A stretch of 64,000 nt of DNA from an uncultured Methylomirabilota bacterium (GCA_963845565.1 CAWJSJ010000004.1:47905-111904), one strand, 5' to 3'; positions 28,431 through 45,747 are shown, counted from the stretch's first letter. A program made the numbers and translations. The notes: generated from the sequence alone by a model not told the origin.

Positions 28431-28441
28431 AGGTGATCGGA

Positions 28442-28474
28442 GAGCCGGATGCGGGCAAACCGCACGTCCGGTTC
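28442..28474 (+). ncRNA. group II intron domain V
   Basis: GAGCCGGAUGCGG-GCAA-ACCGCACGUCCGGUUC matches the conserved domain V hairpin. Confidence 0.75.
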
Positions 28475-28587
28475 GATGAGGGGGTGCTGGCGTCCGGGCA
28501 CGGTCGGGCTCGTGAGGCACCGCCAGACGAAAGGGGCGGGAACAGATAGGCCCGACCTACCTTCAGATTCCCAGGCTCTACTCTACC

Positions 28588-29840: not shown

Positions 29841-29983
29841 CAGGCTGCTGAAAAAGGTCCATCTGCGGCGTTGGCTCGTTTGGGCACTCGCTGCGGCGTA
29901 CAGGAAGTACGCCTCACTCGGCCCCGGGTACCCATCGAAGATGGGTGACGCCGCCTTGCATATGGGCCTTTTTGAGCAGCCTG
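29841..29983 (+). repeat. nested-palindrome intergenic element, copy a
   Basis: Termini are CAGGCTGCTGAAAAAGG.CCATCTGC ... GCATATGGGCCTTTTTGAGCAGCCTG. The central hairpin is GGCGTAC-N5-GTACGCC. Confidence 0.8.
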
Positions 29984-30118
29984 CCCGAAAGTGAGTATTT
30001 CGCGTTCCTCTTGTCAGGAAAGGCGCTGACCTAGCCGGAAGATTTTGGAATCGGACCCGGTTGTGGATTTTGTGCCTCTTGTGGCCATTGGTCGGCCGCG
30101 TGTCTTGCTTATCCCGCA

Positions 30119-37302: not shown

Positions 37303-37427
37303 CGGCTGCTGAAAACGGCCCACCTGCAGCGTTGGAGCGCCTCGCCACTCGCTGCGACGTACTTCCAGTACGCCTCGCTCGGGCCGTCGGCACTCCGCCT
37401 TGCATCTGGGCCATTTTGAGCAGCCTG
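37303..37427 (+). repeat. nested-palindrome intergenic element, copy c
   Basis: Starts immediately after the TAA of the binding-protein gene. Confidence 0.8.
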
Positions 37428-37557
37428 GATGAGAGTGAGTCATGGGGCATACTTGAAAGACCTGAGAATCTGTAGGATGCGAAGCGAGCGGGCCGGGTCC
37501 GTGGAGGGCCCGGCCCGCGCGCCGTTTGACCTCTGACACGTTGCCAAGGAGTGTGCC

Positions 37558-39000: not shown

Positions 39001-39126
39001 CCGACTGCTGAAAACGGCCCATCTGCAGCGTTGTCGCGCTCGGGCGCTCGTTACAGCGTACCTGGAGTACGCTTCACTCGGCCCGTCGGTGCGCCGCCTT
39101 GCATCTGGACCGTTTTGAGCAGTCGG
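39001..39126 (+). repeat. nested-palindrome intergenic element, copy d
   Basis: Starts immediately after the TAG of the amidohydrolase gene. Confidence 0.8.
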
Positions 39127-39362
39127 CGGGGCACAGAAGAAAGCAGGGGGCAGGGGAGACGGGAAGGGCGACAGGGGCGAAAAGGGGATGCTGGCAGCAG
39201 GCAGCCGGCAGCGAGCGGGCGACGGAGGTGAGGCTTTCAGCTCTCAGCCGAGAGCTGACCGATGAGTGCTGATCGCTGCAAAAGCCCGAGAGCGTGCAGT
39301 GAGTAGTTCCGAGCGCTACGCGCCATGCGCTTTGCGCTATGCGCAGATGCGAGGGGTGGGGC

Positions 39363-40106
39363 ATGAAGATCAAGGTCATCAATCCGAACACGACGCAGAG
39401 CATGACCGAGAAGATCGGTGCGGCGGCCCGGGCGGTGGCGGCGCTGGGGACCACGATTCTTGCCGCGAGTCCCTCGATGGGTCCGGTGTCCATCGAGGGC
39501 CATTACGACGAAGCGGTAAGCGTGCTCGGCGTGCTGGACGAGGTGCGGCGGGGCGAGGCGGAGGGCTGCGACGGGTACGTCATCGCCTGCTTCGGGGACC
39601 CCGGGCTCCTGGCGGCGCGCGAGATCGCGCGCGGTCCCGTCCTGGGCATCGCCGAGGCCGCCATGCACGCGGCCAGTATGGTGGCAACCGGCTTCTCCAT
39701 CGTCACGACGCTGGCACGGACCGTCGGGATCGCCCGCCATCTTGTCGAGGCCTACGGGATGTCCCGCCACTGCCGGGGCATCCGGGCGACGGACCTTGCC
39801 GTATTGGACCTCGAGCGGCCGGACTCCTCGGCGTCCGCGGCCATCCTCGAGGAATGCCGCCGCGCCGTGCGCGAGGATCGCGCCGATGCCATCGTCCTGG
39901 GCTGCGCGGGGATGGCCGACCTGGCGAAACGGATCGGAGACGAACTCCGGCTTCCGGTGGTGGACGGGGTGACGGCCGCGGTCAAGCTGGTCGAGGCGCT
40001 GGTGGCGCTCGGCCTTCGGACGAGCAAGGCGGGGGAGCTGGCTTTCCCGCTGCCGAAGGTCTATACCGGCCTGGTCGAGCCGTTCGCGCCGGACGCAGGC
40101 TGCTGA
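39363..40106 (+). CDS. Asp/Glu/hydantoin racemase family protein
   Basis: MKIKVINPNTT..., ACFGDPGL and LGCAGMADL (two catalytic Cys motifs). The last codons and the TGA are supplied by repeat copy e. Confidence 0.85.
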   Translation: MKIKVINPNTTQSMTEKIGAAARAVAALGTTILAASPSMGPVSIEGHYDEAVSVLGVLDEVRRGEAEGCDGYVIACFGDPGLLAAREIARGPVLGIAEAAMHAASMVATGFSIVTTLARTVGIARHLVEAYGMSRHCRGIRATDLAVLDLERPDSSASAAILEECRRAVREDRADAIVLGCAGMADLAKRIGDELRLPVVDGVTAAVKLVEALVALGLRTSKAGELAFPLPKVYTGLVEPFAPDAGC

Positions 40107-40261
40107 AAAAGGCCCATCTGCGGGGACCCATCCTCCGGACGGGTACCCCGCGCGCTCGCGCGCTCGCTGCGGCGTACCTGGAGTACGCCTCGCTCGGCCC
40201 CCGGGTGCCCATCCGTAGGATGGGTGGTGCCGCCTAGCAGCCGGACCTTTTTGAGCAGCCC
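40096..40261 (+). repeat. nested-palindrome intergenic element, copy e (longest)
   Basis: CAGGCTGCTGAAAAAGGCCCATCTGC ... GGACCTTTTTGAGCAGCC with extra internal hairpins. Confidence 0.8.
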
Positions 40262-40479
40262 GAGCGAGAGCGTGGTCTTCGGAATCTAGCTCGCCTCGCC
40301 GCCCCGCAAGATGTACGTCTGTGTCGGTGCGTGCCTTGACAATCATACCAAGTCGAGAGTAGCCTTCCAGCCATCGTACCTCTCCCTCATTACCAGCGGA
40401 GGCGGCTCCATGGGGTCGGCCAGAAACGGCGCTCCGGACCCGAAGCGTGCCAGCGGTTTGGCCCGTCCACCGTGGCCAC

Positions 40480-40690
40480 TCCGGGTGCATTCCCGCCCCA
40501 CCTGGCGTCCGTCCTCTCAGCCAGCAATCCAAACCCCTCGACCGCCATCCCACCGAGTTGGCCGGACCGGCGATCAACGCCTGTCTGCGGTACGAGAACT
40601 CCCGGGCCATCACGACGTCACCGCCACGATGATCTATTCGCATATCCTCAATCGTGGACCGGCGGGTGTCCGTAGCCCGTTAGGCCGTGA
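40480..40690 (+). pseudogene. tyrosine recombinase remnant (integron-integrase-like C-terminus), heavily decayed
   Basis: ...[31 protein letters not shown] resembles the (V)QELLGH.DV.TTMIYTHVLNRG..GV.SPLD end of IntI/Xer-type recombinases. Upstream similarity is only patchy across frames. Confidence 0.5.
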
Positions 40691-40726
40691 CCGAATCTAT
40701 TCACACCCGTAAGGAACTTTGCCACA

Positions 40727-41473
40727 ATGGACATCCCACGGATCTTCAACATCACCGAAAGTGCTCACCGCATCCATAACCCGATCACACCCGAAAAACT
40801 CGCCACCCTCGGCACGGCGCTGCGTCTGGCACCGGGGGCCCGAGTGCTCGACCTCGGCAGCGGTTCGGGGGAGATGCTGTGCACCTGGGCACGCGATCAC
40901 GGCGTCAGCGGCACCGGCATCGACATGAGCCAGTTGTTCACCGAGCAAGCGAGACGCCGTGCTGTAGAACTCGGCGTCGCCGATCAAGTCAAGTTCATCC
41001 ATGGCGATGCGGCCGGCTATGTCTCTGATGAGAAGGCCAGTGTGGCCGCCTGTGTCGGTGCCACGTGGATCGCCGGGGGAGTCGCCGGCACGATCGAGCT
41101 TCTGGCGCGCAGCCTGCGCACCGGAGGGATCATCCTCATCGGCGAGCCCTACTGGCGGCAGTTACCGCCGACGGAAGATGTGGCCAAGGGGTGTCTTGGC
41201 AACTCCATCTCCGACTTTCTCAGGCTTCCAGAACTTCTCGCGACTTTCGGCCACCTCGGCTACGACGTCGTGGAAATGGTTTTGGCAGACCAAGACAGCT
41301 GGGACAGATACGAGGCGGCCAAGTGGCTCACCATGCGCCGATGGCTTGAAGCCAATCCCGACGACGAGTTCGCGAAAGATGTTCGAGCCCAACTGACCTC
41401 GGAACCCGAGCGCTACGCCGCGTACACGCGTGAGTACCTGGGCTGGGGTGTGTTCGCGCTGATGCCGCGGTGA
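40727..41473 (+). CDS. class I SAM-dependent methyltransferase (cassette 1)
   Basis: VLDLGSGSG motif I and GGIILIGEP post-I/II motifs. 248 aa. Confidence 0.85.
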   Translation: MDIPRIFNITESAHRIHNPITPEKLATLGTALRLAPGARVLDLGSGSGEMLCTWARDHGVSGTGIDMSQLFTEQARRRAVELGVADQVKFIHGDAAGYVSDEKASVAACVGATWIAGGVAGTIELLARSLRTGGIILIGEPYWRQLPPTEDVAKGCLGNSISDFLRLPELLATFGHLGYDVVEMVLADQDSWDRYEAAKWLTMRRWLEANPDDEFAKDVRAQLTSEPERYAAYTREYLGWGVFALMPR

Positions 41474-41609
41474 TGCGTTGGGGCATCCGGGGATTGTCAA
41501 CGGCTGTGCCGCGCAACAGCTGGTGGCTCGCCGAGATGTGATTGCGCCTGAATTCATTTCTTACGGTCTCGTTGTCCGTGCAATCAACAGAAAGGCCTGT
41601 CACAGGCAG

Positions 41610-41830
41610 GCCTAACAACCGGTTGCAGCGGACGACGCTCCGCGCCGCCGGTAAACCGGAGCGTTGCGCGGGCTTGGCACGCAGGTGGCTTGGGCGCGCC
41701 GGCCCGCTGGTCGACACTCGGGTGGTGACCGAATATCTGGCGGCCCCCGCGCCCGTGCAACGGGGCCGCGGCTTGCCAGCCGCCCTCGGGCGTCGCGTCT
41801 TGCGCCGCCCAACCGCGGGCCCCGTTAGCA
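41610..41830 (+). other. attC-like recombination site 1
   Basis: Left core GCCTAAC (41610..41616) is the exact reverse complement of GTTAGGC at 40679..40685. Right core is GTTAGCA (41824..41830). It contains a 150-bp core (41666..41815) shared with site 2. Confidence 0.55.
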
Positions 41831-41859
41831 CCATCGCATGAAAAGACGGAGGACCAGGA

Positions 41860-42519
41860 ATGAACTCATTCGAGCGGCTCGTTCGCGCGGTCGTCATCCA
41901 GACGCTCCGTGACACCGGGTTCGCTCCTTCGGCCGCGCAGATCGCCGCCACATTGAGCGCCTCTGAACCGGACATCTCTTCGGCACTGCACTCCCTATCT
42001 GAGAGGCACAGGCTTGCGCTTCTGCCAGGAACCGACAAGGTGTGGATGGCGCATCCGTTCTCCGGCGTGGAAACCGACTTCGCCGTCTCCATCGGTAAGC
42101 GTCGATGGTTCGCCAACTGCGTGTGGGACGGTCTGTCGATACTCGCGCTGCTCGGTGACGGAAACCTCTACACCCACTCGCCGGCCACAGGCGAGCCGAT
42201 CCAGCTTACGGTGTCCGCCCGCAAAGTTCTCGGCGAAGCGCTGGTCCACTTTCTGGTGCCAGCCCGGCGTTTCTGGGACGACATCGGATTTACCTGAGCG
42301 AACATCACCGCCTTCCGGTCGGAAGGTGAGTTGGATGCGTGGCTTAGGTCCCGCGGCTACCCCAAGGGAGCGATCGTCGTTCCCCAGATCCTATATAATC
42401 TCGGTGCTGACTGGTACGCCACCCGCCTTGAGGTTGATTGGAAACCGGCGAGCGCAGAGGAGGCTACGGTCCTGTTCGCGAAGCACGGGCTGGTCGGCGG
42501 TTTCTGGTCGTTAATCTAG
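41860..42519 (+). CDS. MerB-like (alkylmercury lyase family) protein with in-frame TGA, candidate selenoprotein (cassette 2)
   Basis: ORFs 41860..42297 and 42331..42519 are in the same frame, separated only by TGA 42295..42297. FANCVWD is a Cys-x-x-Asp motif. ...DDIGFT-TGA-ANITAFRSEGELDAWL continues the family alignment. Confidence 0.7.
42308..42328 (+). promoter_or_regulatory. candidate bacterial SECIS hairpin
   Basis: CCGCCUUCC-GGUC-GGAAGGUG: 8 bp including one G-U, with apical loop GGUC at +23..+26 from the U of UGA. As I recall, the E. coli fdhF SECIS has the same loop at almost the same spacing. Confidence 0.6.
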
Positions 42520-42525
42520 TAAAGG

Positions 42526-42816
42526 TGCTAACCCCCCACTTCAGCCGACGCGAAACCCGCGCGGCTGATTTCGGCGTGGCGCGGGCTCGGCACGCAGGTG
42601 GCTTGGGCACGCCGGCCCGCTGGTCGACACTCGGGTGGTGACCGAATTTCTGGCGGCCCCCGCGCCCGTGCAACGGAGCCGCGGCTTGCCAGCCGCCCTC
42701 GGGCGTCGTGTGCCGCGCCGCCCAACCGTGCCGGCAGCCAACATCCCTCCGCTGTGCTCCGGGGCTTCGCCCCGCCGCCCGCGGCGGGGTGCGGCTGAGC
42801 CGTCGCCCCGTTCGAC
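42526..42816 (+). other. attC-like recombination site 2
   Basis: Left core TGCTAAC (42526..42532) is the exact reverse complement of GTTAGCA at 41824..41830. Right core is GTTCGAC (42810..42816). The shared core is 42577..42728. Confidence 0.55.
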
Positions 42817-42822
42817 GCAGCT

Positions 42823-43572
42823 ATGATTTTGAAATCAATAGCGACATCGATGCTTTTGGTGGCCCTTATCCTTTTCGGGACGGTCGGATGTTCATCGATT
42901 GAAAGGGCGTTGCTCTTCCATCCTACTCATCGGCCTGATAATAACAGTCTGACGCCATGGACCAAAAACGGCGAAACCATCGGCTATTCGCGAAAGATCG
43001 AATCGCCCAAGAACATATGGCTGATGCTTCACGGAAACGCTGGTCAGGCATCTGACCGCTTGTACGCAGTGCCAAGTTTTTCTGATGAAGATTCGGTTTT
43101 TATTCTTGAATATCCAGGATACGGGAGTCGTGAAGGTGTTCCATCGAAAGAGGCTTTTTATCGGGCGGCCAAAGAAGCCTACCTCCTTCTTAGGGAGACT
43201 TACCCTCACACTCCGGTATGTGTGGCCGGGGAATCGATTGGAACGGGCCCTGCCTCATCCCTTTCAAGCCTCAGCCAGCCACCCGACAAGTTGGTACTCA
43301 TCGTTCCTTTCGATAAACTTTCTTTGGTAGCCAAAGATCAATTCCCATCCTTTCTTGTTGATCTGATCCTGAAGGACGACTGGGACAACGTAGAGGCGCT
43401 TTCAAATCACAAAGGCCCAGTCCATATTTTCGGTGCTGAAGCAGACACAATTATCCCCGTGGGGCGCGCAAAGGCTCTTGCTGCCGTTATTCCCAGGGCG
43501 AAAATGGAGATCATTGGCGGTGGCCATAATGATTGGTCTTATCAGGGACGAGTGACAATAAGGAATCCGTGA
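42823..43572 (+). CDS. alpha/beta hydrolase (cassette 3), visibly AT-richer than the flanks
   Basis: N-terminal TM/signal segment, GESIGTG nucleophile elbow, and HNDW near the C-terminus. ATG lies 7 nt after the right core of site 2. Confidence 0.8.
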   Translation: MILKSIATSMLLVALILFGTVGCSSIERALLFHPTHRPDNNSLTPWTKNGETIGYSRKIESPKNIWLMLHGNAGQASDRLYAVPSFSDEDSVFILEYPGYGSREGVPSKEAFYRAAKEAYLLLRETYPHTPVCVAGESIGTGPASSLSSLSQPPDKLVLIVPFDKLSLVAKDQFPSFLVDLILKDDWDNVEALSNHKGPVHIFGAEADTIIPVGRAKALAAVIPRAKMEIIGGGHNDWSYQGRVTIRNP

Positions 43573-43591
43573 GGCGTTTCTCATCATTGCT

Positions 43592-43638
43592 GTCGAAGAA
43601 TGGCTTGCAGCGGATCGCCGGGAGGGGCCCCGTTGGGC
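43592..43638 (+). other. attC-like recombination site 3 (miniature)
   Basis: Left core GTCGAAG matches 6 of 7 positions of the complement of GTTCGAC at 42810. AATGGCTTGCAGCGGA parallels AACCGGTTGCAGCGGA of site 1. The right end is GGGGCCCCGTTGGGC, with GTTGGGC fitting GTTRRRY. Confidence 0.45.
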
Positions 43639-43958
43639 TAGGTGAGAAAGGAGAAGTTGCGCCGCACGGGAATGGGAGACGCGCTCAGCATCCACGTCGA
43701 GTTCGGGTTCTAACTCGTGTTCACGGTCGTCATTTCGGTCGCTGCATGTGTCGCGGGCTGGCGCTACATCAGGAGCATTTCTCGTCGGGGTGTTGGAGGC
43801 CAGCGCAGCAAGCAGCACGAGAACGACGCCCCGTGAGGCGAGTTGCTCCCCGAATACGCGCACCGAGCTGACGCGTTCAGGATTTGCGCACTACGCTTGG
43901 CTTCACGCGCGCAGGTTACGCGCACAACGTTCGCGGGAACCAAACAGGAGAGTCGAAC

Positions 43959-44495
43959 GTGTCACAGAATCTCGTATTGACTGTAATTGGCGCGGCAGTT
44001 GGTGTTGGGCTTGTGGCAGTGATTGCGTACCAAGTCGCCCGTTTCATGCGGGGATCGATCACGTTGTCCCTGCGACGCGGTGCGTTCAATCCCGGAGATA
44101 CAATCACTGGCAGGTGCGAGCTTCATACAAAGAAGGCTATCCACGGAAACCAGCTGAGTGTCAGCCTGATTGGCGTGCAGGTGACCACCTCCTACAACGG
44201 CGGGAAGCGGCGAACGCGTTCCCGCGAAATCTATAGAAATGAGGTTCTGCTGGAGGAAGGAAAGGCATACCCCGCCGGGCACACAGCAGGATATGACTTC
44301 CAACTCGTCGTACCGAATGCGAATGCGCCAGAATTCTTGGACTCGCCGCTCGGGCAGACTCTCAGTACCGCCTTGCGACTCCTCAGCAACAGGGACTCGC
44401 AGTTGAAATGGAAGGTCGAGGCCCGACTCGATGCACAGGGTGTCGACCTTGCGGCCGCACAATCCGTGTCGATCAACACCGGACAATGGCTTTAG
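43959..44495 (+). CDS. hypothetical membrane-anchored protein
   Basis: GTG 43959 follows CAGGAGAG. There is one N-terminal TM helix, then a beta-rich domain. No family is recognised with confidence. Confidence 0.55.
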   Translation: MSQNLVLTVIGAAVGVGLVAVIAYQVARFMRGSITLSLRRGAFNPGDTITGRCELHTKKAIHGNQLSVSLIGVQVTTSYNGGKRRTRSREIYRNEVLLEEGKAYPAGHTAGYDFQLVVPNANAPEFLDSPLGQTLSTALRLLSNRDSQLKWKVEARLDAQGVDLAAAQSVSINTGQWL

Positions 44496-44646
44496 ACCAG
44501 TGAGTCAGGCATTCTCGCTGACCGTCACGCTTGCATCTCGTCCTTGCGAAATAGTGCAAGAGGACAAGGCGAAGGAGTAGGCGGGCGGCAAGCGCGCCGG
44601 CAGCCAAACGCGCCGTCCGGCAAACATGGTCGCCGCAGTTCCTCTG

Positions 44647-44675
44647 TTGACTCGCGTCACGTGACGCGTTACACT
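44647..44675 (+). promoter_or_regulatory. sigma-70-type promoter with embedded palindromic operator for higBA
   Basis: TTGACT - 17 nt - TACACT. The spacer is essentially the perfect 16-bp palindrome CGCGTCACGTGACGCG. ATG of higB lies 7 nt after the -10. Confidence 0.55.
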
Positions 44676-44681
44676 CCCCTC

Positions 44682-44963
44682 ATGATCAAGACGTTCGCGG
44701 ACAAGCGCACGAAGGATCTCTACGACACCGGTCGGGCCAAACGCTTCCCGCCGGATGTGGCAGGTCGCGCAGCCCGCACGCTCGAGTATGTGGACCTCGC
44801 GACCCAGATCGACGACCTGAAGGTTCCACCCGGGAATCGGTTCCACGCACTGGAAGTCGACGGTAAAGGCCAGTACTCGATATCCATCAACGACCAGTGG
44901 CGTATCTGCTTCCGGTTCGTCGACGGGGACGCCTACGACGTCGGGGTCTGTGACTACCACTGA
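44682..44963 (+). CDS. higB: type II toxin HigB (RelE/ParE superfamily, plasmid-maintenance killer family)
   Basis: MIKTFADKRTKDLYDTGRAKRFPPDV...LKVPPGNRFHALEVDGKGQYSISINDQWRICFRF is the classic HigB family pattern. Confidence 0.85.
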   Translation: MIKTFADKRTKDLYDTGRAKRFPPDVAGRAARTLEYVDLATQIDDLKVPPGNRFHALEVDGKGQYSISINDQWRICFRFVDGDAYDVGVCDYH

Positions 44964-44976
44964 GACGAGGTGTGAG

Positions 44977-45291
44977 ATGAGCATCGCCAACACAGGACCC
45001 ATGAAGCGCCGTCCCACCCATCCGGGCGAGATGCTGCGCGAGGACTTCCTCCCGGACTACGGCCTGACCGTGTCCGGGCTCGCTAACGCCATCGGTGTGT
45101 CGCGCCAGTCGGTCAACGACCTACTGCGCGGGCGTCGTGCCGTGAGTCCGGAGATGGCACTGCGCCTCGGCAAGCTGTTTGGGAACTCGCCGGAGTTCTG
45201 GCTCAACGCCCAGCGCGCCGTCGACCTATGGGACGCGGCCCAGGCGATCAAGGACAACGTCGCCGGCATCAAGACGCTGAGTGTCGCCTGA
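44977..45291 (+). CDS. higA: HigA-family antitoxin (XRE-type HTH)
   Basis: PTHPGEMLREDFL...GLTVSGLANAIGVSRQSVNDLLRGRRAVSPEMALRLGKLFGNSPEFWLNAQ. Confidence 0.85.
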   Translation: MSIANTGPMKRRPTHPGEMLREDFLPDYGLTVSGLANAIGVSRQSVNDLLRGRRAVSPEMALRLGKLFGNSPEFWLNAQRAVDLWDAAQAIKDNVAGIKTLSVA

Positions 45292-45747
45292 CAAGCGCCT
45301 GACCCGCGACTACCCGCGGGCCGGAAGAGCAGCCTGAGCGGGGAGCGTGCGCCGGCCGCGGGTTGCGGTTTACGCACCCGTTGGCTTCGACGGTCGGAGA
45401 CGGATTCTGCAGCGTCTCAGAAGGGACTGATGTAGGTTTCTCCCATGGGTTCTGTCCGGAATGCTATGCGGAGGAGATGAAGACTGTGCGGAAAATGAGG
45501 GGAGAGGCATAACGCCGACTCCTATGCGGACCGCCGATCATCACGCTGCACGGGCTCGGCCCGGAGGCGACTTGGACGATTCGGCCTCTGGTCGCAGGCG
45601 GGGTGTGGTGGAGGCGGGGTGGCGGCACCCGCGTCCGGCAGTCGTCACGCCTACACTGCGCTCCGGCGCGACGCCGGAGCCGCCGCGCCGTTCGGCCTGA
45701 ACCAACACCGGGGAACTTGCCGTTCCCATCGCGAAGGAGAGCGACCA

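Follow-up and report, generated by a model that had tools for sequence, protein, structure and literature searches.

The 64-kb stretch of DNA analyzed here (64,000 nucleotides from an uncultured Methylomirabilota bacterium, GCA_963845565.1 CAWJSJ010000004.1:47905-111904; hereafter the window) carries at ~40.3–45.7 kb what we take, with a probability of about 0.9, to be a degenerate integron. In the terms of IntegronFinder, it is an attC-site cluster without an integron-integrase (CALIN) beside the remnant of an integrase (intI) pseudogene, in inverted orientation. The element is real but ordinary, of a kind already described: an integron wreck in which the last 35 codons of intI are kept, captured cassettes follow, and an intact recombination site is left in only two. 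A degenerate integron had been proposed at this place from the sequence alone (the original prediction), and that interpretation is supported by an IntI-specific remnant, two attC sites, and cassette boundaries common to unrelated contigs. Of the three conditions that the proposal had set for its own refutation, all were checked and none came true. The same proposal had counted only three cassettes. Because each of its "long sites" is an attC followed by a 155–161-nt repeat unit without an open reading frame (ORF; the repeat is called unit X herein), the array holds at least five units. Its parts are as follows.

40581-40688, + strand: intI remnant, the last ~35 codons, with box II including the catalytic Tyr and a GVRSPL tail
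40680-41663, + strand: cassette 1, with a 47-nt conserved leader, an S-adenosylmethionine (SAM) methyltransferase ORF at 40727-41473, and an attC
41610-41669, + strand: attC of cassette 1, 60 nt; R'' GCCTAAC, R' GTTGCGC at 41663
41664-41824, + strand: unit X copy 1, ORF-less, in a cassette slot, running to the validated boundary G/TTAGCACC
41825-42576, + strand: MerB-like cassette, ORF at 41860-42519 (Pfam MerB, 1.2e-10)
42526-42582, + strand: attC of the MerB-like cassette, 57 nt; R'' TGCTAAC, R' GTGGCGC at 42576
42577-42810, + strand: unit X copy 2 and hairpin segment; the repeat at 42577-42728, then an unrelated 82-nt GC-rich hairpin segment to G/TTCGAC
42811-43632, + strand: hydrolase cassette, alpha/beta hydrolase ORF at 42823-43572 (weak Pfam match)
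43592-43638, + strand: truncated hydrolase attC; R'' GTCGAAG (C mutated to G), spacer and L'' kept, L' missing

Remnant of an integron integrase

By its profile matches, the remnant is the end of an integron integrase (IntI). It aligned with positions 280–314 of the 315 in TIGR02249 (E = 2.8e-9) and with NF011946 (E = 1.4e-6), compared with only E = 0.007–0.03 for XerC/XerD models. The best match in a search of the PDB was to residues 285–319 of 320 of Vibrio IntI4/VchIntIA (E = 5e-6), with XerD at E = 1.4. Models specific to IntI therefore match better than those of XerC/XerD (E = 0.007–1.4), which argues against the phage or Xer-type origin that the original prediction had named as a threat to its reading.

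The 29-letter C-terminal peptide of that prediction is present in frame 3. No full-length intI, as a complete integron would have, occurs in the 64-kb window, where only profile positions 280–314 of 315 are represented. A full IntI from one of the methyltransferase loci described below (L092) was 61% identical to 40581–40688 and had no other match in the 64 kb (tblastn). Three-frame NCBIfam scans found no IntI signal in any frame of the 300 nt upstream of the remnant, and a homologue search with a 53-amino-acid IntI fragment returned no candidates. The IntI-specific insertion (the I2 helix region near patch III) falls in the deleted part of the gene.

The remnant is fused in frame with the leader of cassette 1, and the first recombination point (G/TT, 40679/40680) lies inside its S-P-L codons. 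Integrase homology had been said to end at this G/TT. The junction is indeed within those codons, but the remnant is the natural IntI C-terminus and the profile ends 2–3 residues beyond the G/TT, so the stop mostly reflects where IntI proteins end.

Two canonical attC sites

Rfam lacks an attC family and gave no match in 40–46 kb even at E ≤ 5; we therefore built an attC covariance model of our own (R1). It was trained on 13 independent attC sites from other contigs, 11 preceding and two following methyltransferase cassettes, which remained after long sites misaligned by MAFFT had been left out; variable outer core bases were trimmed. The imposed structure consists of an R box, a 5-nt spacer, and an L box whose R''-L'' arm has two bulged bases. 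Pairing was seen in 85.6% of cells of this structure, and double changes in 10 of its 16 pairs. The covariation score was reached by none of 500 shuffles, and slid controls collapsed.

The whole window was searched with R1 on both strands with filters off. Matches were found at 41613–41666 (+ strand, 32.2 bits, E = 1.4e-6) and 42529–42579 (+ strand, 27.2 bits, E = 4.7e-5), each immediately behind a proposed cassette gene, whose strand it shares, and nothing else in the window matched at E < 3. The top score in 1.46 Mb of unrelated bacterial DNA was 17 bits. In sixteen cassette-array loci, used as a positive control, R1 recovered 17 sites at E < 0.01; each of the 17 lay on the strand of the genes, and they included non-training and 100-nt attC sites. 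The hairpin regions at 41756–41830 and 42736–42816 and the truncated site at 43592–43638 had no R1 match at E ≤ 10, even when the search was confined to 6.5 kb.

Because R1 aligns complete sites at the two matches, the real lengths of the two attC are 60 and 57 nt. The original prediction had matched right cores at 41824 and 42810 with the left ones at 41610 and 42526; the actual right cores are at 41663 (GTTGCGC) and 42576 (GTGGCGC). Both cores, the L''/L' stem, two extrahelical bases on the canonical arm, and the spacer are present at 41610–41669, and the same is true of 42526–42582 except that the conserved GTT of R' is changed to GTG. Both sites share with classical ~60-nt attC (the aadA-type 59-base elements) an R'' of the form nnnTAAC, an unpaired spacer of 5–7 nt, an L box whose R''-L'' side bears two extrahelical bases, and a short terminal loop. 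The classical G/TT of R' is shared by 41610–41669 only, with G/TG at 42526–42582, and both sites are GC-rich (67%), unlike classical mobile-cassette attC.

Cassette boundaries

The boundaries of three gene cassettes, coding for a YjhP-type methyltransferase, a MerB-like protein that likely contains selenocysteine (Sec), and an alpha/beta hydrolase, are validated. The three same-strand ORFs of the original prediction were recovered with Pfam as a SAM methyltransferase, MerB, and, weakly, an alpha/beta hydrolase. Their leaders measure 41, 29, and 6 nt as reported, and all seven core heptamers listed for the array are in place. The prediction had treated as decisive the complementarity between the start of each cassette and its downstream core. 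That complementarity exists and is longer than claimed: GTTAGGCC/GGCCTAAC match at 8 of 8 positions, and the start of the MerB-like cassette, GTTAGCACC, is a 9-of-9 reverse complement of GGTGCTAAC at 42522–42530. However, GTTnnnn with its exact reverse complement 150–1600 nt downstream occurs as 76 pairs per strand in the window (10 in 40–46 kb), and 8-mer complement pairs in the same setting number 27 per strand. The heptamer rule is therefore not decisive alone, and a 7-of-7 match as self-sufficient proof of cassettes was rejected on this count. The CCCCGTT context ascribed to every right core has eight occurrences on the window's + strand, of which three fall in 41820–43628; the first core has only CCCGTT.

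The methyltransferase of cassette 1 is a class I SAM methyltransferase of the YjhP family (Pfam). Its relatives number ~8000 at E ≤ 1e-20, and the best 120 of these are 87–94% identical at the amino acid level and come from many phyla. E. coli yjhP has 73% DNA identity to the gene and lacks the leader. We compared 83 loci carrying the methyltransferase (L083–L165; three genome contexts and 80 metagenome contigs), in which its gene neighbours are unrelated. In most of the 83, homology sets in precisely at GTTAGGC, 48 nt ahead of the start codon; upstream of it is either the preceding cassette's attC, which is unrelated and folds well, or an AT-rich attI-like flank. At the other end, the cassettes finish with GCCTAAC, which a ~60-nt attC follows. 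L087, L088, L090, L096, and L110 share the 3' untranslated region and R'' of the window, whose 60-nt attC (41610–41669) aligns gap-free with methyltransferase-cassette attC in other loci. The unit thus recurs with an identical G/TT start in different contexts, as a gene cassette does.

Two further patterns were seen among these loci. The 48-nt leader is almost invariant. R'' GCCTAAC is constant and the remaining attC varies, with at least five unrelated types, as if exchange had taken place at R'' and not at R'.

The hydrolase unit was found in two other loci (L166 and L167, 92% amino acid identity), where it starts as in the window (G/TTCGACGCAG up to the ATG), follows an unrelated attC, and has different downstream neighbours. 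Its G/TTCGAC start accordingly recurs in different arrays, and hydrolase homologues sit in arrays where toxin-antitoxin pairs and small same-strand ORFs abound. The L167 copy has a perfect R'' GTCGAAC and a ~100-nt attC that R1 scores at 31.6 bits. In the window, the truncated counterpart continues as ...GGGGCCCC/GTTGGGC, a sequence similar to that at the right end of unit X (inverted repeat, direct repeat); this suggests that a deletion took L' and most of a third unit X copy. The left part of the truncated site resembles the attC at 41614–41632 (repeat), and the site as a whole does not fold (z = -0.1 to -0.6). GC content is low in the hydrolase region, ~54% over 43–44 kb.

Conservation of the same gene order and junctions among relatives had been named as the mark of an ordinary operon. 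The methyltransferase and hydrolase units instead have dozens of unrelated surroundings, with homology lost exactly at G/TT.

For the MerB-like unit, only the attC, and not the whole unit, was found elsewhere. In L131, a 94% identical copy of it stands after a different cassette, one with a toxin-antitoxin pair, and ends G/TTAGAC at the place of G/TGGCGC in the window. The MerB-like ORF has an in-frame TGA at 42295–42297. Among 1.84 billion representative proteins, most relatives are ~145 amino acids long and end exactly at the TGA position, and full-length relatives (220–234 amino acids) have a conserved Cys at that position, in the motif (Y/F)TC. The 73 codons past the TGA align with the C-terminal parts of the full-length relatives. 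A hairpin resembling a selenocysteine insertion sequence (SECIS) follows the TGA directly (42296–42345, -20.7 kcal/mol, apical loop GGUC). Judged by these sequence features, the ORF is likely a selenoprotein gene travelling as an integron cassette.

Orientation and the left junction

The intI remnant and both attC model matches are all on the + strand, the orientation found in inverted-integrase integrons. These integrons (Treponema spp. and others) are mentioned in PMC4889954, and the group is reported to be paraphyletic. As in them, the intI frame and the attC sites and cassettes of the window share a strand, and the 3' end of intI faces the array. Four methyltransferase loci with a nearby IntI are divergent (L092, L134, L144, and L149) and one, L117, has the same orientation. 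In L117, a decayed intI (791–1303, 1336–2127) ends 45 nt before the G/TTAGGC of the methyltransferase cassette, which comes first after intI, as in the window; the recombination point is 45 nt past the stop codon in L117 and within the gene in the window. L117 is thus a second example of the inverted arrangement and a precedent for the same orientation. The likeness to the inverted class that the original prediction had drawn stands as far as strand and this precedent go; inverted orientation of the remnant relative to the cassettes is plausible, 35 codons being too short for proof.

The position of the junction admits another account, which we consider unlikely. There would have been no resident platform; an integrase acting in trans would have inserted cassettes at a secondary, attG-like GTT in the S-P-L codons of a dying intI, the array would then have grown by attC x attC recombination, and TTGGGCTAG after 43632 would be the old end of intI (SPLG-stop). 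The left junction does lie inside intI codons and not at an AT-rich attI-like site as in L117, L134, and others. The final core, GTTGGGC at 43632, fits GTTRRRY as the original prediction stated, is the sole core to do so, and in frame gives P-L-G-stop. Insertion at secondary sites, and the origin of CALINs and SALINs from it, is documented (10.1101/2022.09.11.507474) and discussed in PMC4889954, and the window resembles the attG/SALIN cases of Loot et al. (10.1101/2022.09.11.507474) in having a cassette junction at a simple G/TT outside an att site. The methyltransferase cassette is also found single in unrelated chromosomal contexts (L084 and L085). The window differs from those cases in that the target would be the integrase's own last codons and several units follow. 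Moreover, no independent evidence was found that the sequence from 43633 onward once adjoined 40679, the region past 43632 is low in GC with toxin-antitoxin genes and looks array-like, and an SPLG end would be 2–3 residues shorter than in relatives such as L092 (SPLDRM).

Unit X

Unit X is 155–161 nt long and placed after each of the first two gene cassettes. It was delimited by a direct repeat (41661–41815/42574–42728; 155 nt, 94% identical) that begins at the G/T of each attC R'. Copy 1 ends in a strong hairpin (41756–41830, GTGCAAC...GTTAGCAC, z = -3.9), and the R''-like GTGCAAC pairs fully, with one G-U wobble, with the unit X start GTTGCGC. Copy 2 lost its right arm at 42728. Apart from a weak third copy at 45544–45637 (69% identity, E = 0.04), unit X was not found in Rfam, the rest of the window, or the 83 cassette-array loci. 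Formally, it is like an ORF-less cassette. The 10-mer GTGACCGAAT of the methyltransferase leader (40687–40696) recurs in both copies of the repeat, at 41725–41734 and 42638–42647 (chance expectation ~0.007).

Unit X recurs after each gene cassette, starts at the attC crossover point, and ends ...GGGCCCC/GTT. That it is a novel non-coding integron module, and not a dead cassette, is in our judgment quite improbable. As such a module, it might be a cassette-borne alternative recombination site, which would explain the CCCCGTT at three successive junctions, or a regulatory or promoter cassette co-selected with the following gene.

It is decidedly improbable that unit X is a small non-autonomous mobile element with attC R' ends as its target, whether a miniature inverted-repeat transposable element (MITE) or what is left of an element of the IS1111-attC or group IIC-attC type. 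Such an origin would suit two copies that begin exactly at the G/T of attC R', that are 94% identical between unrelated flanks, and that consist of two hairpins, and a group II intron does occur elsewhere in the window. The copies have neither terminal inverted repeats nor target duplications, however, and 40–46 kb gave no Rfam match to group II introns or anything else even at E = 5. Unit X is also unlike the intron region, the rest of the window, and the 83 cassette-array loci, and its right end is at the same time a validated cassette boundary (the 9-of-9 complementarity of the next cassette).

A very improbable reading is that of the original prediction, in which the ~150-nt repeated core is part of attC and the three cassettes have long sites of 221, 291, and 47 nt. 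The outer heptamers show the complementarity expected under the cassette rule, chromosomal integrons often carry homogeneous attC sites, and site 1 has long-range complementarity (CGGTTG/CAACCG and GACGACGC/GCGTCGCGTC). R1, however, recovers two full sites of 54 and 51 nt that run from R'' through R' and stop at 41666 and 42579, and it detects genuine 100-nt attC sites yet finds nothing spanning these regions. The same attC sites elsewhere are 60 and 57 nt long and end at G/TT where the repeat begins in the window. The repeat itself starts at G/TT and excludes R''-L''. As single sites, the 221- and 291-nt units fold no better than dinucleotide shuffles (whole bottom strands, z = -1.4 and -1.5), and this part of the prediction was abandoned.

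Extent of the locus and flanking features

The following features lie downstream of the hydrolase cassette and to the left of the remnant.

43633-45620, + strand: probable further decayed cassettes (Pfam, GC), with only weak, non-significant attC-like signals
43959-44495, + strand: membrane/arrestin-like ORF (Pfam)
44682-44963, + strand: HigB (Pfam), preceded by a promoter-like site
45001-45291, + strand: HigA (Pfam)
40095-40281, no strand: palindromic intergenic repeat resembling repetitive extragenic palindromic (REP) sequences or MITEs, outside the integron; it marks the native chromosome end, left of the island

To the right, a histidine kinase gene starts at ~45.7 kb (Pfam). GC content falls to 54–59% at 43.6–45.6 kb compared with 66% in the genome (GC profile), a foreign composition that we count for the integron reading. 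A small membrane protein gene and HigBA genes are typical array content. From composition, strand, and gene content, they would be older, more decayed cassettes. Both GCCGGCAGCCAAC (42730–42742) and GCCGGCAGCCAAAC (44596–44609) resemble R'' cores, and GCCGGCAGCCAAC at 42730 is the exact complement of GTTGGCT at 45378–45384, behind higA; this complementarity hints at past cassette reshuffling or deletions inside the array.

Two JGI metagenome contigs, found by exact-protein look-up with the hydrolase, are 99.6%–99.7% identical to the window over 41.3–45.8 kb. They therefore belong to the same population as the window, and the arrangement is stable in that population. Exact-protein look-ups for the flanking racemase and the methyltransferase returned no record.

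Several repeats occur beyond the array. The palindromic repeat at 40095–40281 has four copies in the window (the others at 29843–30002, 37304–37446, and 39003–39145) and belongs to an intergenic family of ~150–180 nt (GCTGCTGAAAAAGGCCCATCTGC ... GCAGATGGGCCTTTTTGAGCAGCC) located behind several genes; one copy adjoins the integron remnant. Domains V-VI of a group II intron were matched with Rfam at 28440–28566 (+ strand, 44.4 bits, above the gathering score), 12 kb from the array, and this region has no similarity to the array repeats. Two more dispersed repeat pairs are 88%–95% identical (23666–23774/51339–51447 and 23877–23997/30132–30253).

Class of the element and how it may have formed

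CALINs were defined by IntegronFinder (Cury et al. 2016, PMC4889954), and 15 of 279 had an intI pseudogene nearby (PMC4889954). The window is alike in having at least two attC less than 4 kb apart on one strand (two + strand matches 916 nt apart, by our own model R1 and not that of IntegronFinder), no integron-integrase gene across its 64 kb, a recognizable IntI C-terminal pseudogene fragment within 10 kb, and cassettes of mostly unknown or non-resistance function. The pseudogenes counted in PMC4889954 needed >50% profile coverage, and the remnant in the window is much shorter. Unlike there, it abuts the first cassette, with the junction inside its codons. Two R1 matches on the array strand exceed the single attC that a complete integron must have beside its intI.

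Cassettes would have been captured singly by IntI, which would recombine a folded bottom-strand attC with a target G/TT. Each capture would leave a cassette that starts TTnnnn and ends in its own attC, whose R'' complements the start. The platform probably decayed after capture, and the array would now be frozen. Immobility is suggested by the lack of a cis-encoded integrase, a left junction that has no att site, a GTG crossover triplet, and several broken attC. The non-canonical hairpins of the ORF-less units may also be part of this frozen state. Expression would come from upstream read-through, except for HigBA with its own promoter-like site.

Several observations weigh against the degenerate-integron reading or parts of it. 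At least five attC sites would be expected, of which only two are canonical, and at 43.6–45.6 kb R1 gives only sub-threshold attC-like signals, so that cassette status there is a matter of context. No attI was identified, and the AT-rich attI-like flank seen in L117, L134, and others is missing at the left junction. Phylogenetic membership in the inverted-integrase group is beyond the reach of 35 residues. Unit X is labelled a cassette only because of its position between two validated recombination points, and its hairpin at 41756–41830 bulges on the wrong arm (the 3' arm, + strand) and has no unpaired central spacer. A scan of genome contigs for the flanking racemase found no close relative; the best was 74% identical (a Rokubacteria metagenome-assembled genome), with neighbours not shared. 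Even so, the chance that the locus is an ordinary operon or genomic island whose cores are chance matches is practically nil: heptamer complement pairs are common by chance (76 per strand), but the IntI-specific remnant, two model-defined attC with clean controls, and exact boundaries in dozens of unrelated contigs speak against it.

Significance

The locus is a well-dissected example of integron death, with the integrase reduced to 35 codons, attC lost singly, and cassettes fixed as chromosomal genes; its host, uncultured and rich in GC, is not one of the usual Proteobacteria. For annotation, decayed arrays can be recognized by a short IntI C-terminal tail, heptamer complementarity is not specific by itself, and comparing cassette homologues across metagenomes fixes boundaries to the base. 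The ORF-less repeat is the only real chance of novelty at the locus. Two by-products may be of greater interest than the locus itself: a YjhP-type methyltransferase cassette found in many phyla with an invariant leader and, as its sequence suggests, a cassette-borne MerB-like selenoprotein gene with a SECIS.

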